A DNA stretch of 64,000 nucleotides from the NCBI GenBank assembly GCA_036253495.1, contig GCA_036253495.1_4125.1, one strand, 5' to 3'. This document shows, in pieces, positions 13,904 through 33,376 of this stretch. The notes beneath the pieces were generated by a model, which was given only the letters and a program-made list of their open reading frames with translations, searched no databases and was not told the origin of the DNA. This stretch comes from a phage. Both the position numbers and the translations under genes were made by a program. Within the stretch, counting starts at the first letter, position 1; every line of letters starts with the position of its first letter.

Positions 13904-14212
13904 ATGTTTCAAACTAACACTCAAGGTTTTGTAATCATCGATTTGAATCAAAACAGCGGTTATTGGATGAAACCTACTGACGCATGTATGCAGTTTGATT
14001 TTTTAGGTTACAGGATTAGTGTAAGTACTGGTGCTTCTGTACTGCGTGGTGGTTGTATCGTTGAACATCTGGTAACTGATCCAGAAGGTCGTGAGTATGA
14101 AATCGCAGGTTCAGTACAAGATGCCATTATGTTTGTATGTCAGCGTGAAATGAATGGTTCGAATTCAAATGCACTGACTCATGCTCTTTCTCAAGAAGTG
14201 GAGGTTCGTTAA
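13904..14212 (+). CDS. hypothetical protein
   Basis: 102 aa, GAGGAA RBS. Confidence 0.55.
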   Translation: MFQTNTQGFVIIDLNQNSGYWMKPTDACMQFDFLGYRISVSTGASVLRGGCIVEHLVTDPEGREYEIAGSVQDAIMFVCQREMNGSNSNALTHALSQEVEVR

Positions 14213-14457
14213 TGAAATATATTGTAGCAGTACTAATTGCTTTCCTACTCACTGCATGTGATGCTTCAACAAAAGAACGAACTGGTGAGTTTGTTTTACC
14301 AACTGAACTCAAAGAAGCAGGGTGTAAGATTTATCGTATGCAACAGGAAGGTGCAGGTGCAACTTTGTACACTGTTTACTGTCCTAATGCAAACACTACT
14401 ACGTCTTATATGAGTGGTAAAGTTCGCGTGGATACATCTGTGGTTCATGGAGAATAA
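14212..14457 (+). CDS. putative lipoprotein
   Basis: Signal peptide with LLTAC lipobox-like site. Confidence 0.55.
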   Translation: MKYIVAVLIAFLLTACDASTKERTGEFVLPTELKEAGCKIYRMQQEGAGATLYTVYCPNANTTTSYMSGKVRVDTSVVHGE

Positions 14458-14459
14458 CA

Positions 14460-14828
14460 ATGAGTCTTGATACTACTCGTTCGGCAAATATCTTGGAACG
14501 TTTGAATGATGAAGAATATCTTGCTAATGCAAAATATCAGCTTGAAAAACTCATTCGAAATGTAAAATATGTTGATATCACTACACAGCTTCCACTAGAT
14601 GAATATCACAAGTTAAACGAAGATATTGTATATCACCCAAATGAAATTTGGATTGAGTGGGAATCATGGACTCATTCGGTTCTCCGTATCGAAGGATATT
14701 GTGTGAAATATGAAAGTTCACCAGGTGATTTTACAAAAAAACTGTCGATATTGTGCACTGACACACATGAAATAGTTGAGGTGAATTTGAATCATATGAA
14801 GGGTTGCCGTTGGGGAGATGTTAAATGA
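14460..14828 (+). CDS. hypothetical protein
   Basis: 122 aa ORF. Confidence 0.55.
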   Translation: MSLDTTRSANILERLNDEEYLANAKYQLEKLIRNVKYVDITTQLPLDEYHKLNEDIVYHPNEIWIEWESWTHSVLRIEGYCVKYESSPGDFTKKLSILCTDTHEIVEVNLNHMKGCRWGDVK

Positions 14829-15100
14829 TTAAAAAACTCTTGACGGTGTTTGTTGTATTCTGTACAATGTTTCTTACAGCATGTAATGATGACGGCAGGT
14901 TCAGTGCAAAAGACTTAGTTCGTCAGGATTGTACATTCACAGGTAAGTCTTTTATTAACGAATATGAAATATGTACACAAGCAGGACGTATTTGTGGGGG
15001 TTGGGAAAAACGTCAGGAGCGTCTGTATGTATATGATTGTCCAGGACACCTCAACAAAGTACTAAGCACACACAAACTTGTTTATGATAAGGTTGAATAA
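14825..15100 (+). CDS. putative lipoprotein
   Basis: Signal peptide with FLTAC lipobox-like site. Confidence 0.55.
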   Translation: MIKKLLTVFVVFCTMFLTACNDDGRFSAKDLVRQDCTFTGKSFINEYEICTQAGRICGGWEKRQERLYVYDCPGHLNKVLSTHKLVYDKVE

Positions 15101-15309
15101 TGACTACCAATGAAATGATGCAGGTTATTTGGAATAAAGGTTGTGATATTAAAATCACTAGTACTGATGTTCGTGTATTCAAAACTGAATACATGGAATA
15201 CTTGGACCTTGATACTTATAATAATATTGTATCAATTGAACACAAAGGTGCAGTACTGGAAACAATTGACGTTGTTCTCAAGAAAGCAACGGATTTATTG
15301 GGAGCATAA
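15100..15309 (+). CDS. hypothetical small protein
   Basis: 69 aa ORF. Confidence 0.5.
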   Translation: MTTNEMMQVIWNKGCDIKITSTDVRVFKTEYMEYLDLDTYNNIVSIEHKGAVLETIDVVLKKATDLLGA

Positions 15310-15310
15310 G

Positions 15311-15457
15311 GTGAACAATAAAGAATGGGAAGAGTACCGCAAGAAGTGCCGAGAGTTTGATAAAGAACTCACTGGTACTGTGAACGCAGTAATGTGGGTA
15401 TCTGCAATAATTGCAGTACTGGGACTGTTTGCAGTTATCATTAATAAGTTTTTTTGA
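15311..15457 (+). CDS. small membrane peptide
   Basis: GTG after GGAG; C-terminal TM helix. Confidence 0.4.
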   Translation: MNNKEWEEYRKKCREFDKELTGTVNAVMWVSAIIAVLGLFAVIINKFF

Positions 15458-15466
15458 GGAATACAC

Positions 15467-15667
15467 ATGTTTACTTTATATCTAGCCGTAGTACTAACAA
15501 ATGGTGAAATCACACGTACATTCGGTGACGGTGTATATAAAACACCTGAGCAGTGTTATTCTGCGACACACTGGCCTCGTGATGCTGGTGAAGAAACTCG
15601 TACCGAATACAAATGTATGAAGGTCAAAGGTGACTTTGTTAACCTTAAGGTCATTGAGGTGAAGTAG
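15467..15667 (+). CDS. hypothetical small protein
   Basis: 66 aa ORF. Confidence 0.5.
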   Translation: MFTLYLAVVLTNGEITRTFGDGVYKTPEQCYSATHWPRDAGEETRTEYKCMKVKGDFVNLKVIEVK

Positions 15668-16173
15668 TGAATCTTAGTACTGATAAGTTTGTAAAGTTCA
15701 TAGAGTTTATCAACTTCAATGAGAGCTACAATGGTACGTACAATACTATGAATATTGTATCTGATAAAGTATTTGATAGTACAATGTTCTATTTGTATGA
15801 TACAAACGGTGATAAGCTGTGTGATGTTACATTCGGTATTGGTGATCTTTTTGAATCTGCGGTTTATCTATCTAAACCAACGGTGCGTGATACATATGAA
15901 ATTCACTTTCATAATAGACCGAATCACAAAAACATTGTAGAATATGATATACCATCATCACACGAACTGTTCATTGTAGATTACAGTACTGAAGAGGGTG
16001 TATTTCAAAGTTCATTGCTATACAACTTTGAACTACACGATCCTGATATTCCTAAAGTACTGGCAATTTCCAATAAGGTATGTGAATTGCCATATAACAT
16101 ATACATGTCAGTTCCTGGTAAAAGAGTAGGTAATTTCTGTAAAGCCTTTGACATACAAGCGGATGATAAATGA
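15667..16173 (+). CDS. hypothetical protein
   Basis: 168 aa ORF. Confidence 0.55.
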   Translation: MNLSTDKFVKFIEFINFNESYNGTYNTMNIVSDKVFDSTMFYLYDTNGDKLCDVTFGIGDLFESAVYLSKPTVRDTYEIHFHNRPNHKNIVEYDIPSSHELFIVDYSTEEGVFQSSLLYNFELHDPDIPKVLAISNKVCELPYNIYMSVPGKRVGNFCKAFDIQADDK

Positions 16174-16394
16174 ACAGATACGTGATTGAATACGTGGGTA
16201 TATCTGAATTTGATAACATTCGTGGCTATGAAAAGGTCATGAGTGAACGCACGATATATGTTAGGGGTCGCGATGAAGCCCATGTTCTCTCTTTACTGTT
16301 AAATGACCTGACAAAGTTCAATACAACAAAGACACAACGTTATATTGAAACAATTAAATCTATTAAACTTTTAGACGAGGATGATGAAGAATGA
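16170..16394 (+). CDS. hypothetical small protein
   Basis: 74 aa, ATGA overlap. Confidence 0.5.
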   Translation: MNRYVIEYVGISEFDNIRGYEKVMSERTIYVRGRDEAHVLSLLLNDLTKFNTTKTQRYIETIKSIKLLDEDDEE

Positions 16395-16603
16395 ATTTAT
16401 ATCTAGTAGAAGGTACAGTGCAGGTTTTCCGTTTTGATGGTGATCGTGGTATGCGTTTCTCACATGTTGAAGAATTTAAATTTGTCGTACATGCAGAAGG
16501 TGAGTACGAAGCAGAGATTAAAGTATCTGAATCCTTTGATAAGAAAGAAACAGTAGATGTACAGTATCAGCAACTACAATTTAAAGTGTGGCCTACGCTT
16601 TAA
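16391..16603 (+). CDS. hypothetical small protein
   Basis: 70 aa, ATGA overlap. Confidence 0.5.
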   Translation: MNLYLVEGTVQVFRFDGDRGMRFSHVEEFKFVVHAEGEYEAEIKVSESFDKKETVDVQYQQLQFKVWPTL

Positions 16604-16607
16604 AAAC

Positions 16608-16636
16608 TTGACACGCATGTAAAAAGCGAGTATTAT
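16608..16636 (+). promoter_or_regulatory. sigma70-like promoter
   Basis: TTGACA, 17 bp spacer, TATTAT. Confidence 0.5.
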
Positions 16637-16667
16637 ATCTGTATTATGAATTAACTGAGGAATACGT

Positions 16668-17333
16668 ATGCTCGCCAATTTAAGTTACATTATTAGTGAT
16701 GATATGGTACAAAGTCGTGGTATGTATCTTGAGAAAGTTCCATACGATAGCGATGGTATCAAAGGAACTTTATACGAAAGTCGTTTTGACAGAAAGCATC
16801 CATTCTGGGAAAAGGCTAATCTAACGGAAGAAGATAGTAATCGTTTATTTTGTGCTGTGCAGACGCCTACACCTGGTATATTAGCGGGTTATGGTATAGA
16901 TAAAGTCATTAACTTTATGACAGACTATGAAGTTATTAAAAGTCTGCAATATATTAATACGAACAATGGTGAGTTCTATAATTCTGATGATTTTCTTGCT
17001 ATGTGTAGTGCTTCATATGAGAGTGAATTATTGCCAAGTGGTAGACCATTCCCATTGTCAACACATTGTAATTCCCCTTACGGTGTAGCTGACAACTTAC
17101 AGCAGATCCTTAAGAAACATAAGAATGTTCTTACATCTGAAATGGAAGTTGTTATTGGATTTCATCCAGTGTACAAGGAAGATCAACCTGAACATGGTGG
17201 GTGGCGTTGGCATAAGCACGGCACATACATTGGTACTCATAAGAAAAAGCATGAGTACTTGTATGATGAAGAAGGTATTGATGTTGTTTATTGTTACGAA
17301 CTAATCCCAGTAAAGAAAAAGGAAACACTATAA
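16668..17333 (+). CDS. hypothetical protein
   Basis: 221 aa, GAGGAA RBS. Confidence 0.6.
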   Translation: MLANLSYIISDDMVQSRGMYLEKVPYDSDGIKGTLYESRFDRKHPFWEKANLTEEDSNRLFCAVQTPTPGILAGYGIDKVINFMTDYEVIKSLQYINTNNGEFYNSDDFLAMCSASYESELLPSGRPFPLSTHCNSPYGVADNLQQILKKHKNVLTSEMEVVIGFHPVYKEDQPEHGGWRWHKHGTYIGTHKKKHEYLYDEEGIDVVYCYELIPVKKKETL

Positions 17334-17575
17334 TGTTAATTTTATACGTTGTACTGATTTTATTAGTTAACTTTTCTCCAACTATTTTAACTTTAGTATG
17401 GGGTAAATTTTATGATGCTGTAAAAGTATTTCTCTTGAATACTGCATGGGTATTGGTAAGTCTGACTCTTTATTGGTCTACTGATTGGATGATGATTGTG
17501 AGTCATATACTACTATATATTTCATTCCTAATGTTGTTCCAAGAAAAAGAAGTACTTGACAAACTTGAAGGTTAG
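17333..17575 (+). CDS. small membrane protein
   Basis: TAATG overlap; two hydrophobic helices. Confidence 0.5.
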   Translation: MLILYVVLILLVNFSPTILTLVWGKFYDAVKVFLLNTAWVLVSLTLYWSTDWMMIVSHILLYISFLMLFQEKEVLDKLEG

Positions 17576-17584
17576 ACCTATAAT
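17556..17584 (+). promoter_or_regulatory. sigma70-like promoter
   Basis: TTGACA, 17 bp spacer, TATAAT. Confidence 0.55.
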
Positions 17585-17607
17585 ATCCTTCTACTAAGGG
17601 GGATATT

Positions 17608-17868
17608 ATGGCAGTAGGGTTTGGTTCACCAGATAACCACCAAGAAACGATACAAGCAACTATTGATAATGCTATTGACTTTGCTCGCTCAAATCTGTAT
17701 AGTGGTGAGTCTGAAGAGTACTGCATCGACTGTGACTGTGAGATACCAGAGAAGCGGAGGTTAGTACTGAAGGGTGTAAAACGATGTGTTCAGTGTCAAT
17801 CAAAGGTTGACAAGGTATATCAAGAGCGTTATAATAGACGTGGAAGTAAAGACAGCCAACTCCGTTAA
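17608..17868 (+). CDS. TraR/DksA-like C4 zinc-finger protein
   Basis: CIDCDCEIP ... RCVQC four-cysteine arrangement in an 86-aa protein. Confidence 0.5.
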   Translation: MAVGFGSPDNHQETIQATIDNAIDFARSNLYSGESEEYCIDCDCEIPEKRRLVLKGVKRCVQCQSKVDKVYQERYNRRGSKDSQLR

Positions 17869-17888
17869 ATTAATATGAGGAACTACTA

Positions 17889-18221
17889 ATGTTATCATTT
17901 ATTCTTTCTATCCCTTGTTTTGTTCTTCTTTTTGTATTACTTTTTGAAGCATTCCAGAAAGATGAAGAAGTTAAAAATGACCTACGTAAACTATTCAATC
18001 TGGATAGTCCAGTAGTTGGGATCTTTTATGTTTTAGTATGTGTGTATGCTGTTGTGTGGCTATTGGGCTTTTTATTACCACTATCTACTGTACTTGCATG
18101 GATTTCCGTTGTTGAAAATTTAGTAGCTATTGTATGGTTTATTCAATGTTTGTTTAGTGGTTTGGTTTCTGATTGGATTTTCTTACTTAAAGTGAAGTTT
18201 AAATCAAAATCTGATAAGTAA
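17889..18221 (+). CDS. small membrane protein
   Basis: 110 aa hydrophobic ORF. Confidence 0.55.
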   Translation: MLSFILSIPCFVLLFVLLFEAFQKDEEVKNDLRKLFNLDSPVVGIFYVLVCVYAVVWLLGFLLPLSTVLAWISVVENLVAIVWFIQCLFSGLVSDWIFLLKVKFKSKSDK

Positions 18222-18312
18222 TAACCAAGTACTCATATAAAATACAGAATAGTATTAAATACTTGTGTACTAGTTAAGTACGCAAGTATTTTTTTATTAT
18301 TTTGAGGTTAAT

Positions 18313-18678
18313 ATGGGAAAGCTTACAATTATAATAGCCATGATAATGGCACTTAATGTTATGCCAGTTGAAGCTAACGAGGACGTTGCGTGGTTCGATT
18401 GCATAGGAAATGATGGACAGTGGCATACGTTTTCCAGTGATCCATATAATGGTACTGATATACTAATAGATGGTGAAAATTATCGTTTTGTTAGTGAAAG
18501 TAAAATTGGCAACAAAAAGGTATCGACATTTAGAACTGATTCTGGTATAATTGCTAATGTCATACTGATAGTTGATCCTGAAAATAATACAGGGGATATA
18601 TATGTAGTGGTTTACCGTGATCATTCCAATAAAAGAAGTCTGGATCTTGATAAACTTCATTTACATTGTCAAATATAA
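18313..18678 (+). CDS. putative secreted protein
   Basis: Signal peptide-like N-terminus; paralog of 19064..19417. Confidence 0.55.
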   Translation: MGKLTIIIAMIMALNVMPVEANEDVAWFDCIGNDGQWHTFSSDPYNGTDILIDGENYRFVSESKIGNKKVSTFRTDSGIIANVILIVDPENNTGDIYVVVYRDHSNKRSLDLDKLHLHCQI

Positions 18679-18692
18679 TTTAAGGTAAATCT

Positions 18693-19067
18693 ATGTTCAA
18701 TAGTATCATTGGGTTCTCATTAGTACTTCCACAAATCATTTTTGGTATTTGTTTTGTAACTTTTATGATGGGGTCAATCTATGGTATATGGTATTACATT
18801 TTAAAACAATCAGATGGAATCATTTTAAAAATAACAATGCATTTTGATGTGGATTCACCAGCATGGAATTCATCTATTATTACCAATACATTGTATTTTA
18901 TGATGATCATTTTGGAACAATTGGGATTTGTATCTAATAGTAATGTTTCTATGACCGCAGGTATGGCAAGTATTTGTTGTTTGTGGTATATTGTTTATAA
19001 GATTGATGTGTTGTATAATATGTATCGTGAAATGGTATTGAACAGAGATATGCAGAGGAAAAAATGA
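18693..19067 (+). CDS. small membrane protein
   Basis: 124 aa hydrophobic ORF. Confidence 0.55.
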   Translation: MFNSIIGFSLVLPQIIFGICFVTFMMGSIYGIWYYILKQSDGIILKITMHFDVDSPAWNSSIITNTLYFMMIILEQLGFVSNSNVSMTAGMASICCLWYIVYKIDVLYNMYREMVLNRDMQRKK

Positions 19068-19417
19068 TGAAAGTTATATTATTTTTTATGTGTATTATTA
19101 TGTGTGGTGTCTCTTATGCTGCACCCTTAGCCGGATTGCTTTGTAAAGAGAATTCTGAACAACACATATTCCAAGGGGATTCAGATGACCTTGATATCAT
19201 TTACATCGATGGTACTGAATATACATACGTTAAAGACCATACTGTTGGTGATATCAGTTTCACTGAATATGCAAAAACAGGTGACACTGATTATAGAGCC
19301 TACCTTCAAGTGAATATGATAGAGGGTGAAGACGGAACACAAGAAGTCAAACTCGTACTTAAACGTATTGGAGATAAGGAGGCTGATTTTGGAGGTGAGT
19401 GTACATATGATGATTGA
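19064..19417 (+). CDS. putative secreted protein
   Basis: Signal peptide; C-terminal KLVLKRIGDKEADFGGECTYDD. Confidence 0.55.
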   Translation: MMKVILFFMCIIMCGVSYAAPLAGLLCKENSEQHIFQGDSDDLDIIYIDGTEYTYVKDHTVGDISFTEYAKTGDTDYRAYLQVNMIEGEDGTQEVKLVLKRIGDKEADFGGECTYDD

Positions 19418-19425
19418 TTAAAAAA

Positions 19426-19458
19426 GGTTGACTAACGTCAGCCTTTTTTGTTATACTG
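19426..19458 (+). terminator. terminator hairpin overlapping promoter -35
   Basis: GGTTGACTAACGTCAGCC hairpin, T-run, then TATACT. Confidence 0.6.
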
Positions 19459-19466
19459 ATCCCAAT

Positions 19467-19592
19467 ATGCTTGCATTTCTTCAAGTTGATGTATATGAAG
19501 AAAGTAATGGCGAACAGTATGTTAAACTTGTGATGATGCGTAAGGCAGCAAAACAGGCAACATTCGGTGGCTTGTGTAAATATGAGGACTAA
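19467..19592 (+). pseudogene. truncated paralog remnant of the 19064 secreted-protein family
   Basis: 41-aa ORF ending KLVMMRKAAKQATFGGLCKYED, resembling the C-terminus of 19064..19417. Confidence 0.35.
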
Positions 19593-19596
19593 ACAT

Positions 19597-19788
19597 ATGT
19601 TGATTTATCAATGTGATAACATTCGTGTTATACAGCATCCCTACTTACAAATCTTTGATGTGCAGCAGTATATGGAAGGTGATGACCCAAGAACCTATGG
19701 TCGTAAGTATGATTACTTCACTGTAAAGCAGTGTCGTAACATCAAAGAAGTACGACAATTAGTTCAAGAACTTCAAAATAAAGGTTGA
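19597..19788 (+). CDS. hypothetical small protein
   Basis: ATG 19597 after GAGGA; track ORF from 19567. Confidence 0.5.
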   Translation: MLIYQCDNIRVIQHPYLQIFDVQQYMEGDDPRTYGRKYDYFTVKQCRNIKEVRQLVQELQNKG

Positions 19789-19814
19789 CTTCGGTCAGCC
19801 TTTTTTGTTATAAT
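19783..19814 (+). terminator. terminator hairpin overlapping promoter -35
   Basis: GGTTGAC-TTCG-GTCAGCC, T-run, TATAAT. Confidence 0.7.
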
Positions 19815-19843
19815 CATTTCATCTACTACTGGGGATTTTAATT

Positions 19844-20284
19844 ATGTATGTATATCGTTTTGAACTTAAATTCAGTTATATTGAACCTAACTTAGATCCT
19901 GCAAAAACAGTAGGACCGTTCGCACGGTACTCTTCGCGATACAGTACTAAAAATGGATTTGAACGTTTGTGTATGACTACACCTTCGCAATTCCAACCTG
20001 AGCCAACTGAAGATGGGATCTATTCAATCAAACGTGGCTGGGCATTTGGATGCCAAAGTTTAAACGACCTGTTCAGATTCTTTACAATGGACTTAGGTAA
20101 ACTTCATCGTTCAGGATTTTCTGTTTTTGTGTATGAAGTTCCTGATAACCATGTAGACATTGGACATAACCAAGTGCAGTACTATTGTGGTAGTGCAAAA
20201 CTACTTCGTATTATGTCAGTAAAGGAAGCTAAAGAAGAATTTCGTGCTACAAGATTTAATAAGGAAGAGATGGCATATGGATAA
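19844..20284 (+). CDS. hypothetical protein
   Basis: 146 aa ORF. Confidence 0.55.
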   Translation: MYVYRFELKFSYIEPNLDPAKTVGPFARYSSRYSTKNGFERLCMTTPSQFQPEPTEDGIYSIKRGWAFGCQSLNDLFRFFTMDLGKLHRSGFSVFVYEVPDNHVDIGHNQVQYYCGSAKLLRIMSVKEAKEEFRATRFNKEEMAYG

Positions 20285-20633
20285 AACATCAACACGATTT
20301 GCAAAGTTCTTGAGTTATGAGATACCACAAGATCCGTATTTCGACCAACGTGACGATGAAGATTACATAAAGTTAACTCGTGAACTACGAAATAAGTTCC
20401 AACAGATTTTAAGTTCATACACTAATACACATCCACATTTAAAGTACTTCATTAAGGCAGATATAGATTCAGATGATTCTGAACTATCATTCCTTGAATA
20501 CACAGTTGAGTGTGTTGGGTATGTACCTGATAATAGTGTAATTAATCACAACAAAATAAAGTTCGACTTGTACGTTATTTGTGTTATAATGAACTTAATT
20601 GCACAAATGAACAACTATTCAATAGGGGATTAA
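20277..20633 (+). CDS. hypothetical protein
   Basis: ATG 20277 overlapping upstream stop; track ORF from 20244. Confidence 0.5.
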   Translation: MDKTSTRFAKFLSYEIPQDPYFDQRDDEDYIKLTRELRNKFQQILSSYTNTHPHLKYFIKADIDSDDSELSFLEYTVECVGYVPDNSVINHNKIKFDLYVICVIMNLIAQMNNYSIGD

Positions 20634-20897
20634 ATGAAACTGAAATTGAACTATCATGGTTTTCGTCTGCGTGATGATGTGGAGTTCCTTCGTCGCACAC
20701 CAGGTGCTGAGTTGTTTTTAACTGAAATGGGTGTCCCATTTAAAGTCGAGCACATTGGTGACAATGACTGCCTGGTATATGATAATCAACCGGATATCAA
20801 CGTTCCGTGGTATTCTGAACATATGTACATTGATATGGCGGCTCGCTACAACTGTACGTTTGAAATTACATCTAAAGGTATTGCTATTCAATTCTAA
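20634..20897 (+). CDS. hypothetical protein
   Basis: 87 aa ORF. Confidence 0.5.
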   Translation: MKLKLNYHGFRLRDDVEFLRRTPGAELFLTEMGVPFKVEHIGDNDCLVYDNQPDINVPWYSEHMYIDMAARYNCTFEITSKGIAIQF

Positions 20898-20918
20898 TAG
20901 TCTGATGGACACGAGTAA

Positions 20919-21143
20919 ATGAAATACATGCTGGTGGCATTAATGTTTGTGAGCACAATAGTACAAGCCAGAATCAAGTACTTTGTGAAGTGTACAAACG
21001 TTAGCGGTGGCTACACAGAGACATATCAGGGTAAGTCGGTTAAGATGGCAATACACAATGATAGAGGAACAGTGATTTTCCTTGTGAATGATATAATCAT
21101 TTTGTACAAACCAGATGTACCATGTGAAGTAAAAAGATATTAA
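20919..21143 (+). CDS. putative secreted small protein
   Basis: Signal-like N-terminus. Confidence 0.5.
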   Translation: MKYMLVALMFVSTIVQARIKYFVKCTNVSGGYTETYQGKSVKMAIHNDRGTVIFLVNDIIILYKPDVPCEVKRY

Positions 21144-21148
21144 ACTAC

Positions 21149-21180
21149 GGGGTTGGCATAAGTCAGCCCTTTTGTATAAT
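21149..21180 (+). terminator. terminator hairpin overlapping promoter
   Basis: GGTTGGCATAAGTCAGCC hairpin, T-run, TATAAT. Confidence 0.5.
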
Positions 21181-21188
21181 GGTGACTT

Positions 21189-21767
21189 ATGAACCGTAAA
21201 GGTAAGTTTAAAGTATCAAAGAAGAATAAAAGTGGAAGGTTCAATGATATATGCTTAGGTTTTATCAAAGCACACAATAAACTTTCTGCCCTGAGTAGAA
21301 AGATAGTATCTAACAAGATTGATATTAGATATATAAGTACTAACAATAGTACAGGGAAAGATGCACATCCAACTGAAAATATTATTTCAGTATCCTTCGT
21401 ATACGATGGTCTGGACATTACGATAGATGATTACAGACGATACGGTACTGGGTTTATACGTATCTATTGCAGAGATGCATCTGATAAGCCGGAACGTATT
21501 CGTATTATCGGTACATTGAGTGCTGGTATATTTGAGTGGGAGATTGTTCAACTTAAAACTATCGATGAGTACACCACAAGTTCTAATATTATTGAGTTGA
21601 ATTGCAATGTGAAAGACCTCCCAAACTTGAGCGAAGAAGAATATTTTCAAGAAAGCTTGCTAACGCCAAATTTGGATGATATAATTAAACAATATAAGAC
21701 GATGGTGTACTTCTTCAAATGTATCAAACCTAAGACTTGTTTGATGAATATTGTCCGTGATCTATAA
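21189..21767 (+). CDS. hypothetical protein; LSEEEYFQ motif family
   Basis: 192 aa; motif shared with 71..538 and 1088..1552. Confidence 0.55.
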   Translation: MNRKGKFKVSKKNKSGRFNDICLGFIKAHNKLSALSRKIVSNKIDIRYISTNNSTGKDAHPTENIISVSFVYDGLDITIDDYRRYGTGFIRIYCRDASDKPERIRIIGTLSAGIFEWEIVQLKTIDEYTTSSNIIELNCNVKDLPNLSEEEYFQESLLTPNLDDIIKQYKTMVYFFKCIKPKTCLMNIVRDL

Positions 21768-21778
21768 CAGGAAAAAAT

Positions 21779-22210
21779 ATGTGGGTTAACGTTAATAGTA
21801 CTGAACTTAATGAAATTGATATCTTTGCATTTGTTAATCTGGAAACTGATACCTTTGTTCGTGGACGTTTGTTCATGAGTTCTTCCTGTGTTCGCAGTAT
21901 TGCAGTTATGGATGAACTCGGTCAGGTAATTGAGTGTCTACCATTACCTGCATGGGCATATAGCAGTACTGAAGAAGATGTAATGCATAAGATCTTTGAA
22001 GGTATCAATAAGCTACCTGGTGCAGATGTGAAGAATAAGATATTCAACATTGAGAATAAGAACTACAGTGCAGATGTACTGCGTCCTTTAGTTGATTCAG
22101 TACTGCAAGCTGCATTAGCTAAACCTAAGTGCATTATTTTAAAGTACATTCCAGAACTTTCCCTAACTAAAGAGGATATGAAAGGATTTATATTCTCATC
22201 GGAGTTGTGA
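21779..22210 (+). CDS. hypothetical protein
   Basis: 143 aa ORF. Confidence 0.55.
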   Translation: MWVNVNSTELNEIDIFAFVNLETDTFVRGRLFMSSSCVRSIAVMDELGQVIECLPLPAWAYSSTEEDVMHKIFEGINKLPGADVKNKIFNIENKNYSADVLRPLVDSVLQAALAKPKCIILKYIPELSLTKEDMKGFIFSSEL

Positions 22211-22434: not shown

Positions 22435-22437
22435 AAA

Positions 22438-24072: not shown

Positions 24073-24104
24073 GGTTGACTTCGGTCAGCCTTTTTTGCTA
24101 TAAT
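24073..24104 (+). terminator. terminator hairpin overlapping promoter -35
   Basis: GGTTGAC-TTCG-GTCAGCC, T-run, TATAAT. Confidence 0.7.
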
Positions 24105-25652: not shown

Positions 25653-25663
25653 GGATAACTTAT

Positions 25664-25840: not shown

Positions 25841-25879
25841 TATTACGTGATATGTCACGTTAATTAAGTGAGGCGATAA

Positions 25880-26131: not shown

Positions 26132-26140
26132 TTAAAAAAT

Positions 26141-26512
26141 ATGAATATAGATTTGAAAGGTGCAACACGAACTGTCATACTCATTGGGGAATATGCTATC
26201 AAGATTCCAACCTTCAAAAGCTGGAAGTTATTCCTAATTGGAATGATAGCTAACCTCAATGAACGCTCATGGATGCAGTACTCCAAGCGTAGTGATAGTG
26301 GGATATGTCCTACTCTGTGGTCATCGCGAACTGGCTTAATAACAGTACAGAAACGTTGTAAGCCAGTACAACATAGGGGTTTGTTTTGGGTGGAGTTGAG
26401 TGCATTAGCATTGAATTCAGAGTTGAGTACTGACTTCTTCTATTCAGATGCGAAGCCAGAAAACTTTGGATATTTGAATGGTAAGTTAGTTAAGCTTGAT
26501 TATGGAGATTGA
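26141..26512 (+). CDS. hypothetical protein
   Basis: 123 aa ORF, weak RBS. Confidence 0.4.
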   Translation: MNIDLKGATRTVILIGEYAIKIPTFKSWKLFLIGMIANLNERSWMQYSKRSDSGICPTLWSSRTGLITVQKRCKPVQHRGLFWVELSALALNSELSTDFFYSDAKPENFGYLNGKLVKLDYGD

Positions 26513-26597
26513 TAAGTTTATGGAAATTGTTTTAATCGTTGCATTTGTTACATTAGTATGTACTACCATTTAATATATTTTACGAGGATAATGTGAA

Positions 26598-26927
26598 ATG
26601 AAAAAACTACTAACTATTTTAGTACTATCTGCTATTACGTTGACGGCTGGATGTACCGTTAAAAAAGATTTATTCCCTGTTGGTGGAAGTAAAGCTGATG
26701 GTGTTATTAGGCTTGGATACACATTCGACCAGCGATCTGAAATTCCATTAATTGATTTGGAACAGGGATTGTATGTAGCTACTAAACGATGCCAAAAGTG
26801 GGGATATTCAGGTGCTGAAATTTTTGGTGGCTCCACAACAATGTGTTCTGACCAACGTCCACTGGGGTGTGTTGCAACAAATGTCACATATGAATATCAA
26901 TGTACTGGTGACTTAAAAGAAAAATAA
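26598..26927 (+). CDS. putative lipoprotein
   Basis: Signal peptide with LTAGC lipobox-like site. Confidence 0.55.
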   Translation: MKKLLTILVLSAITLTAGCTVKKDLFPVGGSKADGVIRLGYTFDQRSEIPLIDLEQGLYVATKRCQKWGYSGAEIFGGSTTMCSDQRPLGCVATNVTYEYQCTGDLKEK

Positions 26928-26935
26928 TCTTTTAC

Positions 26936-26968
26936 ATGGGTTGACTTCGTTCAGCCCTTTTTGCTATA
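26936..26968 (+). terminator. terminator hairpin overlapping promoter -35
   Basis: GGGTTGACTTCGTTCAGCCC, T-run, TATAAT. Confidence 0.65.
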
Positions 26969-26998
26969 ATTATTTCATCAAGACGAGAGGATGAATAC

Positions 26999-27436: not shown

Positions 27437-27660
27437 ATGATGAAGAATTCAAAAAATATGCGATTGCGAAGCTTGATTCATACAAGTCACGCGAAACGTA
27501 TAAATTTAATCCTGATAAAACAAAAGCATCTATAAGATGGATGATTAATTCACCCAAATATACATTTGACGAAAAATATTCATGGATAGTGCAATGTAGT
27601 GATTATGAGGATTTGGTATATAATATTAAACTGTGTTGGTATGAATACAACAATAAATGA
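27433..27660 (+). CDS. hypothetical small protein
   Basis: 75 aa, ATGA overlap. Confidence 0.5.
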
Positions 27661-27666
27661 TATAAG

Positions 27667-27699
27667 GGGTTGACTTCGGTCAGCCCTTTTTGCTATAAT
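27667..27699 (+). terminator. terminator hairpin overlapping promoter -35
   Basis: GGTTGAC-TTCG-GTCAGCC, T-run, TATAAT. Confidence 0.7.
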
Positions 27700-27725
27700 C
27701 ATTTCATCAACTCAAGAGGTAATAC

Positions 27726-27965
27726 ATGAAACTATCTTTTATACGTTTAGCAGAATTCTTCGGTACTGATATAATTACTTTACAACAAATTGCAGACAAT
27801 ACTTCATTAAGCACACAAGAAGTACTTGACTTAGATGTGATAGAGTGTGATAATACTTCTATCGATTATAAAGAAGGTCTTGTCGAAAAAGATAAGATTC
27901 AGGCTAAGATTAATGGTGCTGGACGGGTTCAGTACTGGAAAGGGGTTTTAAGTAATGCGTGTTGA
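27726..27965 (+). CDS. hypothetical small protein
   Basis: 79 aa ORF. Confidence 0.5.
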   Translation: MKLSFIRLAEFFGTDIITLQQIADNTSLSTQEVLDLDVIECDNTSIDYKEGLVEKDKIQAKINGAGRVQYWKGVLSNAC

Positions 27966-29289
27966 TATTAAAGTACCTTTTAAATGTGAACCACTGAAAT
28001 TTGTCCAAGATTATGAAATATCTAAAACTATCGAATTTAGTGAAACCGCTTCAAAACTTGATATTAGTAGGAAAATTTTAGGTGAAAAGTATCCAGATGT
28101 AATATGGGATGATTTCAATCCATATAATATGGAAAAAGATGAAATGTGTAAAGACGAAATTATTGGCTTTGTTCGTATGGGAGTTCAAAATCTAAAATAT
28201 TATGCATATATATGTCAAAAATGCTCGACAAATTCAAAACAAAATGGTTTAGGTATATTTTTTACATTAAAAAGATATATTAAAAATAAAATTACATGTA
28301 TGTGCTCAAAAACACCACTATATACAAATTATCAACGAACTATACAACTTCATAATAAATCTATAAGTTTAGGTTATGTGTTTATTGGATATAATAAAGA
28401 AAAACAAATAACTTCGGATGCTAAAATAAAACTAGGATGTTATAATCATGGTATGTGGGATACTATAACAATAAATTCGTATAACACCAACTCACGCGGC
28501 TGTTCAAAATGTGCTGGTGTTCATTCACCATCACAGGAAGAAGCAAATGAAAAAATAAAACAAATTTGTAATGAAAATAAATTAGTATTTCAACCTTTCC
28601 TATATAAAAATAATAAAACTAAAATTTTTGTAAGATGTTTGGTATGTAATGAATCATGGGAGTCAAACTATTTTAAACTTTATACCATGAAATATGGTTG
28701 CCAACGTTGTGTAGGAACAAAAAAGTTAACTACTGAGATTTCTACAGGAATTGTATCAGATTATTGTACAAAATATAAGTTGACTTTCATTCCATTTGTG
28801 TATGATAATAATAAGATGAAAATATCTCTACGTTGTGATATTTGTTCACATGAATGGATAACACCATTCAATGGTATTACTAATAGAATGGGGTGTCCAA
28901 GATGTAATCCAACTGAAGCAATACGTATTTCTAAAGATTTAGATCCATTAATAGATGATTTTCAGCCGGAAAAGAAATTCCTTGAACTTGGAAAGATGCG
29001 ATTTGATAGATTCAGTCAACGATTAAACATTCTGTTTGAATATGATGGGGAACAACACTTTATTTCCAATAGGGTTTGGCATTCTACTACATCTAAGTTT
29101 GAATCTTCTCGTGAACGTGACAGTATAAAAACAGAATACGCAATAAAAAATGGATATAACTTCATTCGTATTGCGTATTATGAAGACCATATTGGAGCAT
29201 TGAAATCTTTCCTTAAACTCATTGAAGAGAATCCAGGAAAGCAAATCGTACAGATCTATGGTGATGTTCAAATCTTAGACAAGAAATAA
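27955..29289 (+). CDS. zinc-ribbon-repeat protein with C-terminal nuclease-like domain
   Basis: Repeated C..C pairs (CQKCS, CSKCAG, CLVCNE..GCQRC, CDICSH..GCPRC); C-terminal FEYDGEQHF..R..D..K..G..IRI motif. Confidence 0.5.
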   Translation: MRVDIKVPFKCEPLKFVQDYEISKTIEFSETASKLDISRKILGEKYPDVIWDDFNPYNMEKDEMCKDEIIGFVRMGVQNLKYYAYICQKCSTNSKQNGLGIFFTLKRYIKNKITCMCSKTPLYTNYQRTIQLHNKSISLGYVFIGYNKEKQITSDAKIKLGCYNHGMWDTITINSYNTNSRGCSKCAGVHSPSQEEANEKIKQICNENKLVFQPFLYKNNKTKIFVRCLVCNESWESNYFKLYTMKYGCQRCVGTKKLTTEISTGIVSDYCTKYKLTFIPFVYDNNKMKISLRCDICSHEWITPFNGITNRMGCPRCNPTEAIRISKDLDPLIDDFQPEKKFLELGKMRFDRFSQRLNILFEYDGEQHFISNRVWHSTTSKFESSRERDSIKTEYAIKNGYNFIRIAYYEDHIGALKSFLKLIEENPGKQIVQIYGDVQILDKK

Positions 29290-29299
29290 CAATACAAAA

Positions 29300-29332
29300 G
29301 GGTTGACTTCGGTCAGCCCTTTTTGCTATAAT
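29300..29332 (+). terminator. terminator hairpin overlapping promoter -35
   Basis: GGTTGAC-TTCG-GTCAGCC, T-run, TATAAT. Confidence 0.7.
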
Positions 29333-29360
29333 TATTTCATCAACTGATGAGGACAACGAA

Positions 29361-30131
29361 ATGACCAGAGAAGCACGCAGCATTCAAATTCAGAAAAACT
29401 TCAACTCCATGATGGTTGCTCTTGAGTGTTTGCTCGATGATAGCAGTACTGTAAAAAGTATGGTTGTCAGCGGTGCTCCTGGTGTTGGTAAGACTTACAC
29501 CCTCTCTAAACGCCTCCAGAAAGCACATGACGCGGCAGAATGGAACGTAGCTACCATCAGTGGTAAAATGACCACTCTGGCTCTGTACGAAGTTCTGTAC
29601 AAGAATCGTCATAGCACCAACGTGTTAGTACTGGATGATATGGACAGCATCTTTGATTCAGAAGACGGTATGAACCTGCTCAAAGCAGTACTGGATAGTG
29701 GCAAGCGTACTGTTTCTTATATGACTAGCTCGAAGTATCTGAGCAGCAACGGTATCCCTAACAGCTTTGATTTTAATGGTCGCATCGTATTCATTACTAA
29801 CAAAGATTTAGCACTGAATGCTAAAGCTAAAACTAAAATGTCTGCTCACTATGCTGCTCTTATGTCTCGCTCTGTATACGTTGACTTACAGATCCAGACC
29901 AAAAGCGATATCATGATTCACATTGAGAACGTGATGAACCAGACCAACATTCTGGAATCTAAGGGTATTAACAGTAATGGTAGTAAAGCAATCCTGAACT
30001 GGATGTTGAAGCACGAAGATTCACTTCGTTCACCTTCACTGCGTATGCCACTGTTGATTTCGGCAGTATATAACAACAACCCATACGATTGGGAAGAGCA
30101 ATGTGAAAACTTGTTCCTGGAGAAAAATTAA
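29361..30131 (+). CDS. P-loop NTPase (AAA-like ATPase)
   Basis: Walker A GAPGVGKT and Walker B-like VLVLDDMD; codon composition looks GC-richer than its neighbours. Confidence 0.75.
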   Translation: MTREARSIQIQKNFNSMMVALECLLDDSSTVKSMVVSGAPGVGKTYTLSKRLQKAHDAAEWNVATISGKMTTLALYEVLYKNRHSTNVLVLDDMDSIFDSEDGMNLLKAVLDSGKRTVSYMTSSKYLSSNGIPNSFDFNGRIVFITNKDLALNAKAKTKMSAHYAALMSRSVYVDLQIQTKSDIMIHIENVMNQTNILESKGINSNGSKAILNWMLKHEDSLRSPSLRMPLLISAVYNNNPYDWEEQCENLFLEKN

Positions 30132-30350
30132 TTGATAACATATAACATCGATAAGGTCATGTTATTATATGCATGTATTAACATGATTGTCGTTTTAGTT
30201 AAAGTTTATAGATGGTTTCATACACTTGATATTGATACTGAAAAGGAGTATAATCCTCAAGAAGCACCACTGGGTTTAAAAGTTATTGTTTTAATTACTG
30301 TAGTGTCTGTATACATGGTATTACTATCAACTATGATTAAGTTCACTTAA
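30132..30350 (+). CDS. small membrane protein (tandem array 1/8)
   Basis: 72 aa hydrophobic. Confidence 0.5.
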   Translation: MITYNIDKVMLLYACINMIVVLVKVYRWFHTLDIDTEKEYNPQEAPLGLKVIVLITVVSVYMVLLSTMIKFT

Positions 30351-30360
30351 CGAGGAACAT

Positions 30361-30693
30361 ATGATTAATTTATTTTCAACTGAGGTTATGATTAAAATTA
30401 CATTAGTATACATGTGTCTATTCGTATACTACCACGCTCTCATCGGAATCTTGTGGTTCTTTAAGAAAGGTCGTCTTCTTGAGAAATTGTACCCAGACTA
30501 TATGATATTGTATACAATTGTCCAGGGTGTAGGAATAGTACTGGGAATTCTAGTGCACTTGATATATTTGTTTGAACCACACCTTCCGTGTATTACACAA
30601 TACATTGTATTCGGAACTACTATTATGTGGCTTGTAATGATGGGTGTGTATGGTCTGTATTTGTACAGGAAACGTATAGTGGGAGATTTCTAA
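30361..30693 (+). CDS. small membrane protein (tandem array 2/8)
   Basis: 110 aa; LWFFKKGRL motif. Confidence 0.55.
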   Translation: MINLFSTEVMIKITLVYMCLFVYYHALIGILWFFKKGRLLEKLYPDYMILYTIVQGVGIVLGILVHLIYLFEPHLPCITQYIVFGTTIMWLVMMGVYGLYLYRKRIVGDF

Positions 30694-31046
30694 TGCAAGA
30701 GATTATAAAATGGTTGACAACCAGTGATATTGCTAGTACACTGAACTATGTACTCATTATCTTATATCCGTTTTTGATGGTTCTAAACTTCATTGGATGG
30801 TATTTCAAACGTCCAATTTACTACAAGATTAATAATTCAGAGTACTATGAAAGTGTTGTAATTGCAACCTCAATCACGTATACTATGGGTGCAGTTCTTA
30901 CAGTCATAGGATTAGGTCAAGGTGATAATCTTAACTTTATGCTATGTACCTTTGTTATGATATGTATTCCAACACTAATTGTAATTCTATCGAATATTGT
31001 GTGGAAAAAAATGTTATTTGCACGCAACAAAATACCGGAGGCATAA
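30693..31046 (+). CDS. small membrane protein (tandem array 3/8)
   Basis: TAATG overlap at 30693; GWYFKRPIYY motif. Confidence 0.55.
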   Translation: MQEIIKWLTTSDIASTLNYVLIILYPFLMVLNFIGWYFKRPIYYKINNSEYYESVVIATSITYTMGAVLTVIGLGQGDNLNFMLCTFVMICIPTLIVILSNIVWKKMLFARNKIPEA

Positions 31047-31381
31047 TGGAGTACTTTATCAGTTTACTACCGTGGTACTTGAAAGTAAGTACAATTTACT
31101 ACATCATTTCCGCTGGGTTTTATTTCTTGATGTGGTTCTTTAAACGTCCAATCAGTGAATTCATCGATAATAATCTGTTGGATGTTAAACTTCACTGCTG
31201 GTTTTGGACATCGACTGTGATGCCATTCATCCATTACGGAATTATCAGTACTGGTAACCGTTCTAATGGTGAAATCATTTCCTTTGGTTTTTACTGGATA
31301 TCGACTATTGTTTACATTGGTGTGCTTTTGTATCCATTTGTAGTTAAACTACGAAACTCTATCCCAGATCACAGGAAATAA
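31046..31381 (+). CDS. small membrane protein (tandem array 4/8)
   Basis: TAATG overlap at 31046; MWFFKRPISE motif. Confidence 0.55.
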   Translation: MEYFISLLPWYLKVSTIYYIISAGFYFLMWFFKRPISEFIDNNLLDVKLHCWFWTSTVMPFIHYGIISTGNRSNGEIISFGFYWISTIVYIGVLLYPFVVKLRNSIPDHRK

Positions 31382-31382
31382 T

Positions 31383-31703
31383 ATGAAGATTGAATTGATT
31401 CTTTTCACAGTAAGTGCATTCTACTTTTGGGTTTGCTGGATTGGTTTTCTCTTTGCACTAAAACCATTTGACTTCTATGCAAAGCAGTGTAAAAATGCTG
31501 CTGTTGGTAATGTAGCTTTTACATTGCTTAGTACATTATGGGTAGTACTGCTTATATTCAATCCACCTGATAATGATTTGGAAATGTCATTGTGTACATT
31601 ATTTGCAGTCCTGTGTGTATTCGCAGCATTCTGTAGTTATATTGGAAAGTTATGTTCTTTGGTATCAAATTTCCATCGTAAACAAAAAGATAAGAGGGTA
31701 TAA
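31383..31703 (+). CDS. small membrane protein (tandem array 5/8)
   Basis: 106 aa hydrophobic. Confidence 0.55.
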   Translation: MKIELILFTVSAFYFWVCWIGFLFALKPFDFYAKQCKNAAVGNVAFTLLSTLWVVLLIFNPPDNDLEMSLCTLFAVLCVFAAFCSYIGKLCSLVSNFHRKQKDKRV

Positions 31704-32086
31704 TGTACACAACAATATATGTTATTCTTAATATCCTAATTGCATTTCTAACAATAGGTGCATTACTATACATTGGAAAGTTCTTTTGTGTAAAGTTCGT
31801 CGAAGATGTGTATGATGATATTGAATCCGACTACGAATCTAAGTGCTTCTTCCATGTTGGATATATCATTTGCTTAGTAACCACTATCCTCACATGGATT
31901 GTATACGTATTCGGGATTGGAATCACTTCAATTGGTGAACCAGTACTGTGCATTATTGGATTAGTGTTTTCTTCAATGTTCGGGTTATTGTTCATGATTA
32001 TTCTTATGTATAATTTAATCTGTACTGCTATTGTTCCTTTCTTTTATGAAATTCACAATAACATTAAACGTAAAAAACGAGGTTAA
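31703..32086 (+). CDS. small membrane protein (tandem array 6/8)
   Basis: 127 aa hydrophobic. Confidence 0.55.
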   Translation: MYTTIYVILNILIAFLTIGALLYIGKFFCVKFVEDVYDDIESDYESKCFFHVGYIICLVTTILTWIVYVFGIGITSIGEPVLCIIGLVFSSMFGLLFMIILMYNLICTAIVPFFYEIHNNIKRKKRG

Positions 32087-32088
32087 TT

Positions 32089-32442
32089 ATGTTTTCTCCT
32101 GCTGGGCAAGTTATATTCATGTTATGTACACTGGTATTCTTTATGTTCTCTGTACTACTTGTGATGAAATTCTTTCACATGAAACCATTCAGTACTTGGT
32201 ATGATAATATTGTGTACTATATTGGTAATGCTATAACACTCTTTTCAGTTGCATACTATTTCGGTTATTTTGCAATGCTATTTGGGTTATTACTTGAGGC
32301 TCGTGCATTGCTTGTAGCTGGTATGATGGCAGATTTAATGTGTATAACACTAGCCTGTATTGGATTTACTGTATGTATGTCGTTAACCATTTTTGACAAA
32401 TTATGTAAACTACACAAACGTTTAGGTGAGAGGATGAAATAA
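32089..32442 (+). CDS. small membrane protein (tandem array 7/8)
   Basis: 117 aa hydrophobic. Confidence 0.55.
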   Translation: MFSPAGQVIFMLCTLVFFMFSVLLVMKFFHMKPFSTWYDNIVYYIGNAITLFSVAYYFGYFAMLFGLLLEARALLVAGMMADLMCITLACIGFTVCMSLTIFDKLCKLHKRLGERMK

Positions 32443-32825
32443 TGACTTACCGTGATTACTTTTGTATTTTTGAAATTGCAGTATTCGCTTTAGGTTCAGT
32501 CTGGTTACTTCTATACTACTTCTGTATTAATCCAGTATTCAATTGGGTTCGTCGTGCTGAACAAAGTAGTGCTGGACAAATAGCAGTTGTTATGGGTATG
32601 ACATATTATATGTTCGCCGTAGCTTCTGTTGTTATTGAAGTAATATTTGGTGGCATGAATGGTGATGATGGGGCAACGTTCTATGGATTCGTTACATTCT
32701 TTAGTGTGCTGATTCCGTGTGGTGCTCTTATTATTACTGCGTTCTATTGGCTATATCGTGGTGTTAAGAAGCTGGAATCAATTCACGTAGATATGCGTTC
32801 AAAACGAATGGGGATTGACAAATAA
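32442..32825 (+). CDS. small membrane protein (tandem array 8/8)
   Basis: 127 aa hydrophobic, ATGA overlap. Confidence 0.55.
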   Translation: MTYRDYFCIFEIAVFALGSVWLLLYYFCINPVFNWVRRAEQSSAGQIAVVMGMTYYMFAVASVVIEVIFGGMNGDDGATFYGFVTFFSVLIPCGALIITAFYWLYRGVKKLESIHVDMRSKRMGIDK

Positions 32826-33376
32826 TGAAACGAAGTTCTAATGTCATTCGTGAACGATTTCGTAAAGTAAAAACTATTAAGTACGGAGCGATTGCCTTGG
32901 CACTTAGTAGTACTTTTATTATGACTGGATGTGAACGCTCTGAAGATATTTCTGTATATCAGAATGTGGACCAATGTAAAAGAAGTGGTAGCAATCCGGT
33001 ACAATGTGAAGATGATTATAAAAAAGCACTAACTGAATCGGAAAAGGTAGCACCAAAATATAGTTCACAAAGTGATTGCTCTAGTGATTTTGGTAATCAG
33101 TGTCAACAGCATAGCTCTGGATTCTTTTGGATGCCAATTATGAGTGGATTCCATAGTAGTGGTAATGGGTTTGCTAGTCAACCATTATACAACTCTAAAG
33201 GGAACTTCTATGATGCTGGTGGTAACTCCTACGGTAGCAGTACTGCAAAAGGTACAACACGTACTGTATCAAGTTCCGCATTAGCTCCAAAACCTCCTAC
33301 AACGACCACAATCACCCGCAATGGGTTTGGGTCTTCAGTAGCCAGAAGTGCCGCTCACACGAGTTCTGGTGGATAA
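32825..33376 (+). CDS. putative lipoprotein, S/G-rich
   Basis: Signal peptide with IMTGC lipobox-like site. Confidence 0.6.
   Translation: MKRSSNVIRERFRKVKTIKYGAIALALSSTFIMTGCERSEDISVYQNVDQCKRSGSNPVQCEDDYKKALTESEKVAPKYSSQSDCSSDFGNQCQQHSSGFFWMPIMSGFHSSGNGFASQPLYNSKGNFYDAGGNSYGSSTAKGTTRTVSSSALAPKPPTTTTITRNGFGSSVARSAAHTSSGG

Follow-up and report, generated by a model that had tools for sequence, protein, structure and literature searches.

What do the small exported proteins of a jumbo phage do in the cell that the phage infects? This question is raised by a stretch of 64,000 nucleotides of phage DNA (NCBI GenBank assembly GCA_036253495.1, contig GCA_036253495.1_4125.1), called the window in the following, in which nine small genes encode proteins with putative signal peptides, four of them with a lipobox. 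A first-pass annotation had interpreted these genes as a set of lipoproteins and secreted proteins that mask several envelope receptors and exclude superinfecting phages. In our analysis the export of the nine products is well supported, but not the idea of many receptor-masking lipoproteins directed against several receptors. The best-supported reading is that the set is a heterogeneous, partly strain-specific tool-kit for the envelope of the infected cell. We lean modestly towards the view that these are nine real early genes whose exported products serve to convert or protect the envelope during the long infection of a jumbo phage, and that they are not plugs of the Llp type.

The window belongs to an Asteriusvirus-type jumbo coliphage. 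Over its bases 14000-22000 (8 kb) the identity to Escherichia phage A4 (ON286972, 355 kb) is 99.3%, and about one third of these bases show 86-91% identity to other members of Asteriusvirus, e.g. 121Q, G17 and vB_Ec-M-J. Nearly all genes of the counterpart region in phage A4 are labelled 'hypothetical protein'.

Nine predicted exported proteins

The nine open reading frames (ORFs) were all found on the + strand at the positions first given for them, and each is preceded, 5-12 nt upstream, by a Shine-Dalgarno-like motif. We refer to each gene by the window position of its first base. The 109 likely genes of the window were screened with a PROSITE-like (PS51257-like) lipobox pattern and with rules for the n-, h- and c-regions and the -3/-1 positions of signal peptides, no later transmembrane (TM) segment being allowed, and 300 shuffles of the same proteins served as control. 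This screen picked exactly the nine, four with a lipobox and five of the signal peptidase I (SPI) type, which confirmed the earlier assignment of signal peptides. The shuffled proteins gave on average 0.36 lipobox calls and 0.27 SPI calls (about 0.6 together), with a maximum of two of each.

The predicted lipoboxes, with the cleavage site marked by a slash, are LLTA/C16 in gene 14212 (14212-14457), FLTA/C20 in gene 14825 (14825-15100), LTAG/C19 in gene 26598 (26598-26927) and IMTG/C36 in gene 32825 (32825-33376), the last preceded by a long basic n-region exactly as in YgiB of E. coli. The sites of the SPI type are VYA/DK in gene 5813, VEA/NE in gene 18313, SYA/AP in gene 19064, VQA/RI in gene 20919 and VNA/SL in gene 56567.

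The mature parts of the nine proteins contain 2, 4, 4, 4, 2, 2, 2, 2 and 2 cysteines, a number that is always even and never zero. Such an even, non-zero count was found in 9/9 candidates and in 25/79 other small genes of the window (Fisher P = 9e-5), and this parity fits disulfide-bonded exported or periplasmic proteins. In the orthologues of vB_Ec-M-J, TH47 and G17 the signal peptides are retained despite a wholly replaced sequence, and the cysteine pairs are conserved. The orthologues of gene 18313 illustrate this, with signal peptides that are entirely different in sequence: MGKLTIIIAMIMALNVMPVEA, MKKYIRMIMVFVVFMLYSRFSTA and MKSYIKLIALVCALFSCFSYGA. Moreover, the lipobox cysteine aligns with that of YgiB in the case of gene 32825 and with that of YecR in the case of gene 26598. 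Because of the result of the screen against the shuffles, the cysteine parity and the signal peptides retained in the orthologues, we regard the nine products as predicted exported proteins, and their passage out of the cytoplasm as well supported.

The nine ORFs fall into eight unrelated families, since hhalign with the mature parts joined only 18313 and 19064. A single superfamily of secreted proteins with N- and C-terminal cysteines was also considered, and it was rejected on the same mature-part comparisons, in which the families of 20919, 56567, 5813, 14825 and 14212 were unrelated. A further ORF of 69 amino acids (aa) at 11639-11848 (+) begins with a short hydrophobic stretch free of charges and has two cysteines; it fails the signal-peptide rules, and it could be a tenth exported protein.

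Comparison with known exclusion lipoproteins

Llp of T5, Cor of T1/phi80 and Rtp45 are small lipoproteins that phages express early, each with a lipobox and a disulfide within the molecule, and the lipoproteins of the window share these features, the disulfide being here predicted from sequence. The mature parts of 14212 and 14825 are also comparable in length (65-72 aa). All the lipoproteins and secreted proteins of the set could then be exclusion factors of this type, each acting on the periplasmic face of a different outer-membrane receptor. The general format of Llp, Cor and Rtp45, i.e. small disulfide-containing lipoproteins behind early-type promoters (PMC9586334, PMC12685063), agrees with this explanation, as does the presence or absence of the genes from strain to strain, and depositors of related genomes have used labels of this kind. 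The evidence from gene 14212, the member to which these labels refer, nevertheless points elsewhere.

Gene 14212 (14212-14457, +) encodes a predicted lipoprotein of 81 aa with lipid on Cys16, Asp at position +2 and a disulfide pair C38/C57, and belongs to phrog_902. By tblastn this family was found in 579 phage records, among them those of Felixounavirus, Vequintavirinae, T5-like Vibrio phages and Acinetobacter phages. An alignment of 55 homologues shows no variation at Cys16 and C38 and at least 90% conservation at C57-P58 and K70. At +2 the homologues of Asteriusvirus and Vequintavirinae have Asp, those of Felixounavirus Asn and those of the T5-like Vibrio phages Glu. In Enterobacterales a Cys-Asp mature N-terminus is a signal for retention in the inner membrane (Lol avoidance). 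From this N-terminus the 14212 protein is predicted to be held in the inner membrane, whereas Llp, Cor and Rtp45 are outer-membrane proteins. A precomputed Pfam label, 'PF16225', is attached to every homologue of 14212; it was not reproduced by hmmscan even at E = 10 and was disregarded. Neither the single sequence nor the family profile of 14212 matched any PDB chain.

Llp of T5 matches phrog_1119, the Llp/Cor family, at E = 1e-19, and none of the candidates, including the four lipoproteins, gave a match to this family. When the 14212 family was compared with T5 Llp by hhalign a probability of 87% was obtained, but the aligned columns were essentially the signal peptide and the lipobox, and with the signal peptides trimmed the probability fell to 3.5%. 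In phages vB_Ec-M-J and fEgEco12 the homologue of 14212 is labelled 'Cor superinfection exclusion protein' or 'lytic conversion lipoprotein'. Because the similarity to Llp disappears without the signal peptide and lipobox, these labels are probably annotation artefacts. Searches of the PDB with the lipoproteins gave no sequence match to Llp or Rtp45, and PADLOC returned no meaningful matches for the candidates.

The position of the genes is also different. Known exclusion lipoprotein genes adjoin the receptor-binding gene (PMC11990801), and in T5 llp lies next to oad, which is the receptor-binding gene. None of the candidates adjoins a receptor-binding gene; they are located in early operons beside unrelated small genes, and the homologues of 14212 in other phage groups sit amid early and replication genes and not among tail genes. 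In addition, five of the nine are predicted soluble periplasmic proteins rather than lipoproteins, and two of the lipoproteins are homologues of host lipoproteins without a known tie to phage receptors.

Membership of the candidates in the Llp/Cor family is rejected on the missing phrog_1119 match, the score of the mature parts and the lack of a receptor-binding neighbour. These findings, together with the inner-membrane signal of 14212, do not sustain the receptor masking proposed by the first-pass annotation, and as an account of the whole set we consider it unlikely. A mode of action like that of Llp or Cor is possible for some candidates in spite of the rejected membership. The annotation had also suggested that the exported proteins match several propeller proteins of the phage, and we found nothing that links the exported set to the RCC1/propeller genes.

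Gene 14825 (14825-15100, +), in the same operon as 14212, encodes a predicted lipoprotein of 91 aa with lipid on Cys20, Asn at +2 and four further cysteines (phrog_31263). Among the loci compared it was found only in relatives within Asteriusvirus, where it is 95-96% conserved, and it shows no relation to the 14212 family (hhalign 4.6%).

Homologues of host lipoproteins and a pair of predicted barrels

Gene 26598 (26598-26927, +) encodes a predicted outer-membrane lipoprotein of the YecR family with 109 aa, lipid on Cys19, Thr at +2 and four conserved cysteines. It matches Pfam PF13992 (YecR) with 77.6 bits (cut-off 27; E = 9e-22) and the YecR chains in the structure of the Salmonella flagellar LP-ring (PDB 7BGL) at E = 4e-7. 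It corresponds to YecR of Salmonella and E. coli in family, length, lipobox position and the four conserved cysteines, all of which align with those of the K-12 protein. It differs in its identity, 33% to YecR of K-12 and about 52% to its closest relatives, and in being a strain-specific insertion in a virulent jumbo phage. YecR is reported to bind the outside of the flagellar L-ring of Salmonella (PMC11756786).

The insertion that carries this gene comprises 425 nt (26513-26937, +), in place of about 27 nt in A4, and extends from the stop codon of gene 26141-26512 to a terminator/promoter cassette that both phages share. Among named relatives the closest, with 52% identity, is a gene of the YecR family that adjoins a recombinase/integrase gene in a single strain of E. 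coli. No protein with more than 53% identity emerged from an exhaustive HMMER search of 1.84 billion representatives, pattern scans of a genome collection and of IMG/VR gave no close relative, and the 26598 protein forms a singleton cluster. Within 50,697 phage records only six matches were obtained, all distant, in Synechococcus and Bordetella phages. A single record of the exact protein exists, MED6699244.1 ('YecR family lipoprotein [Escherichia coli O157]', from a contig of 352,052 bp), which suggests that a phage genome was deposited as part of a bacterial assembly. A donor was sought in E. coli DNA, where a single match (74% over 119 nt) was found, and on this result and those of the HMMER search and pattern scans none was identified.

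Gene 32825 (32825-33376, +) encodes a predicted lipoprotein of 183 aa similar to DUF1190/YgiB, with lipid on Cys36, Glu at +2 and four further cysteines (phrog_3739). Its score against Pfam PF06693 (DUF1190) is 111.9 bits (cut-off 22; E = 5e-32). To YgiB of E. coli K-12 it is 42% identical over the full length, including the unusual long basic n-region, the lipobox and the cysteines. YgiB/YjfM is a Cpx-regulated putative outer-membrane lipoprotein encoded in the tolC-ygiBC operon; ygiB is required for fitness in envelope stress (bioRxiv 10.1101/2022.08.05.503015), and the function of the protein whose gene shares this operon with tolC is described as unknown (PMC11762307). The phage protein is shorter than YgiB and without its Gln/Ala-rich insert, and with 156 bits it remains under the cut-off of 223 for the NCBIfam equivalog PRK11653. 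YgiB has a partner of the YgiC type, an ATP-grasp protein, whereas no YgiC/YjfC-type ATP-grasp gene was found among the neighbours of 32825, which are genes for small TM proteins and an RCC1-like gene.

Directly upstream of the DUF1190 gene, eight small membrane proteins with 2-4 TM segments are encoded in an array (30132-32825, +) which shows weak cross-family PHROG matches and is flanked by an NrdC.10-like AAA gene and by the DUF1190 gene, with which it is probably co-transcribed. In ORF307-317 of Klebsiella phage RaK2 the same order of NrdC.10-like gene, TM array and DUF1190 gene is present, and the next RaK2 gene encodes a protease. Homologues of DUF1190 were found in 144 phage records of large enterobacterial phages (RaK2, GAP32, Erwinia jumbo phages, Moonvirus T4-likes and Vequintavirinae). 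Among the loci compared, the gene was present only in the A4 lineage and RaK2. It is absent at the corresponding position of fEgEco12, and no match was found in the loci of five relatives outside the A4 lineage, not all of which extend to that position.

These two homologies, along with the phenotypes and proposals published for the host proteins (bioRxiv 10.1101/2022.08.05.503015; PMC11756786), are the basis for a second explanation, namely that the set does envelope housekeeping only. The infected cell would be kept intact and productive by a YgiB-like role in envelope stress, by YecR-like shielding of the outer membrane around the L-ring and by chaperone or binder barrels, and other phages would be unaffected. 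The recurrence of DUF1190 in the 144 records, and the synteny with the membrane-protein array that is kept from RaK2 to the phage of the window, are in keeping with it. However, the YecR-like gene is present in one known phage and DUF1190 is unmatched in the other E. coli Asteriusvirus loci compared, a patchy distribution which indicates that the basic cycle can do without either. The phage copies are also without the partner gene ygiC, and accessory, swappable genes serve conflict more often than housekeeping. We therefore think this explanation rather unlikely.

Gene 18313 (18313-18678, +) and gene 19064 (19064-19417, +) encode predicted secreted proteins of 121 and 117 aa which belong to a family predicted to form eight-stranded beta-barrels; the former has its cysteines near the N- and C-termini. 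The first-pass annotation had called them paralogs, and this relationship holds, although it is a distant one (22% identity, pairwise E = 5e-5). With the mature parts alone hhalign gives 72% probability (E = 3e-5, 72 columns) and both cysteines align, and 18313 also matches the phrog of 19064. Between the two lies a gene for a membrane protein of 124 aa (18693-19067, +), the stop codon of which overlaps the start of 19064, and the order 18313-18693-19064 is conserved in relatives. Members of the family (21 clusters) came only from Asteriusvirus-like contigs of approximately 350 kb.

The AlphaFold2 (AF2) model of 19064 is reasonably confident and contains eight beta strands (predicted local distance difference test score, pLDDT, 77.9; predicted template modelling score 0.68), and in a Foldseek search with this type of barrel a lipocalin-fold protein ranked first. 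On the strength of the model we take the two proteins to be small periplasmic barrels of a binder or inhibitor type, and no more than that. They differ from the hydrolase inhibitors PliC, MliC and PhiA in having no sequence similarity to them; no match to Pfam MliC (PF09864) was found at E <= 0.1, the family profile had no sequence match in the PDB, and on inspection nothing resembling the loop motifs of PliC/MliC was seen in the family. Spackle of T4 is helical and unrelated to these barrels.

A bolder proposal would be a takeover of the envelope by mimics and inhibitors, in which the barrels are new Spackle-like hydrolase inhibitors with a PliC/MliC-like fold and the copies of YecR and YgiB are decoys or dominant negatives, at the flagellar L-ring and in a pathway linked to TolC or to envelope stress. 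If this were true, the barrels could block lysis from without or the lysozymes in the tails of superinfecting phages, and the decoys may close the entry routes of flagellotropic or TolC-dependent competitors. We judge it distinctly unlikely.

Downstream of 19064 a truncated third copy had been noted at 19467-19592. The fragment is real and matches positions 62-107 of phrog_27330 (E = 4e-19), but it is not a third paralogue. Over the 45 aa encoded at 19455-19592 the identity to the C-terminal end of the orthologue in vB_Ec-M-J and fEgEco12 is 100%, while the full 19064, a diverged allele, reaches only 57% against this orthologue. At the DNA level the identity to vB_Ec-M-J/fEgEco12 is at most 71% over 15677-19452 and then 92.7% from 19453, a step that falls inside the orthologous gene. 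The step and the identical C-terminus indicate that a diverged segment with its own complete allele was recombined in and that the 3' end of the resident allele was left at the junction. The sequence at 19453-19592 (+) is thus a 3' relic of the resident 19064-type allele, in which the ORF from the ATG at 19467 has 41 aa and no signal peptide.

Early-type operons and the envelope of the infected cell

Sigma-70 promoters that equal or closely approach the consensus are found at 13782, 25023, 29303 and elsewhere. The one at 13782-13810 (+), TTGACT-17-TATAAT, precedes the operon 13904-14212-14460-14825, in which stop and start codons overlap between 13904 and 14212 and between 14460 and 14825. The operons that hold the candidates are bracketed by repeated cassettes of hairpin and promoter, located in intergenic regions at 19780-19814, 21149-21180, 24075-24104, 26938-26970, 27670-27699 and 29303-29332. 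Each is built from a G+C-rich terminator hairpin, the stem of which contains the -35 element TTGACT, followed by a T-run and, 18 nt on, by an extended -10 element TGnTATAAT. This terminator/promoter unit of about 50 nt is repeated at many intergenic sites of related phages. The promoters and cassettes fit early transcription by the host RNA polymerase.

The promoters bear also on the idea that some lipoproteins are o-spanins or antiholin-like regulators, or that the secreted proteins are virion or ejected proteins. Spanins include small outer-membrane lipoproteins and some lysis regulators are periplasmic, and so a role of this kind could be imagined. It is, however, most improbable, given that early-type promoters stand in front of the genes and that none of the homologues in phage 121Q is marked as structural. 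No adjacent or embedded gene of the i-spanin type was found (the genes next to 14212 and 14825 encode no TM segment, and the one next to 32825 encodes three), and a C-terminal TM segment as in a u-spanin is absent from all four lipoproteins.

The remaining three genes encode predicted secreted proteins with no relation to each other or to the other six, from families known only from large phages of Enterobacterales. Gene 5813 (5813-6139, +; phrog_36332, restricted to Asteriusvirus) encodes 108 aa with two cysteines in the mature part; its orthologues have a 45-aa insert, a lipobox-like FSTSC and the same AXA site, and against the NCBIfam 'lipoprotein' PRK11443 it reached only E = 3e-4, far under the cut-off. 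Gene 20919 (20919-21143, +; phrog_31284) encodes 74 aa and gene 56567 (56567-56866, +; phrog_31669) 99 aa, both products with cysteines near the two ends. The latter is 90-95% conserved in Asteriusvirus and has distant homologues in other large phages, one of them labelled 'putative secreted protein'. Upstream of it, at 54878-55111 and 56247-56483 (+), there is a pair of paralogues of 77-78 aa with 67% identity.

The window is AT-rich (G+C about 35%), and its genes form a long + block to approximately 33.4 kb, a - block with RCC1-like paralogues and again a + block. In the - block eight RCC1/propeller-like paralogues follow each other (33408-46463), several of which have near-identical N-terminal segments in common, and at 46754-50360 (+) paralogous proteins of 60-70 aa, of at least two families, are encoded in tandem arrays. 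Per-gene identities against five relatives show that the entire left region is mosaic. An ORF of 270 aa that is HNH-like (12052-12864) is 35% covered in A4 and 95% identical in vB_Ec-M-J, and for a Cys-rich ORF of 444 aa (27955-29289) tblastn found no match in the A4 locus. We considered diversifying selection on the genes for secreted proteins and rejected it, as the non-secreted neighbours are equally diverged in the same comparison.

The gene content for exported proteins varies as well. The YecR-like gene is one case, and relatives carry other secreted or membrane genes. Phages vB_Ec-M-J and fEgEco12 encode further membrane and secreted proteins that the window is without (loci L003, 22291-22527 and 24194-24872, and L004, 26539-26790); among these extras are two to which the depositors gave the label 'immunity to superinfection', one secreted protein whose cysteines are N- and C-terminal, and a further small secreted protein. 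With repertoires that vary among strains, and with such labels in relatives, exclusion or protective functions are plausible for some members of the set.

Under the envelope tool-kit that we favour, the genes would be transcribed by the host RNA polymerase from the near-consensus sigma-70 promoters and the products translocated via Sec. Five proteins would be processed by signal peptidase I and four lipidated by Lgt/LspA/Lnt, and the disulfides would be formed by a pathway of the DsbA type. At the flagellar L-ring and in the physiology of envelope stress, the phage copies of YecR and YgiB may replace the host proteins or interfere with them. The barrels 18313 and 19064, together with the membrane protein of the intervening gene, may bind or inhibit a periplasmic target, for which a cell-wall hydrolase is our leading guess. 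Whether it is anchored in the inner or the outer membrane, the lipoprotein of the 14212 family would have its site of action in the periplasm. For some members of the set it is plausible that a secondary infection, or lysis from without, would be excluded.

Several points weigh against this reading. The signal-peptide calls and cleavage sites come from a rule-based screen and are heuristic, and the early timing was read from the promoter consensus and from nothing else. Membrane destinations and functions have likewise been deduced from sequence and models. The sorting residue of the 14212 family differs between phage groups, which makes any membrane-specific target uncertain, and the AF2 model of 14212, made with the 55-sequence alignment, is poor (pLDDT 62) and unreliable; a Foldseek search of the PDB with it gave no fold match. 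Lastly, the secreted genes are no more diverged than their non-secreted neighbours, so that there is no specific signal of an arms race.

Our literature searches brought up neither a survey of phage lipoproteins nor any work on these genes of Asteriusvirus. Genes for accessory exported proteins are familiar from large phages, and if the nine should confer no phenotype they would be an ordinary accessory complement. Exported proteins encoded by phages nonetheless rewire the surface of the infected cell, and Llp, Cor, Rtp45 and Spackle each revealed a new mechanism. For a jumbo coliphage the present analysis provides a short, well-supported list of nine predicted exported proteins. One of them, for which the Cor/Llp labels in two related genomes fail, represents a family with 579 phage records that is yet unstudied. 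Another is a phage copy of YecR with no close counterpart in the phage collections searched. The homologues of YgiB in many large enterobacterial phages, finally, offer a handle on the function of the host protein.

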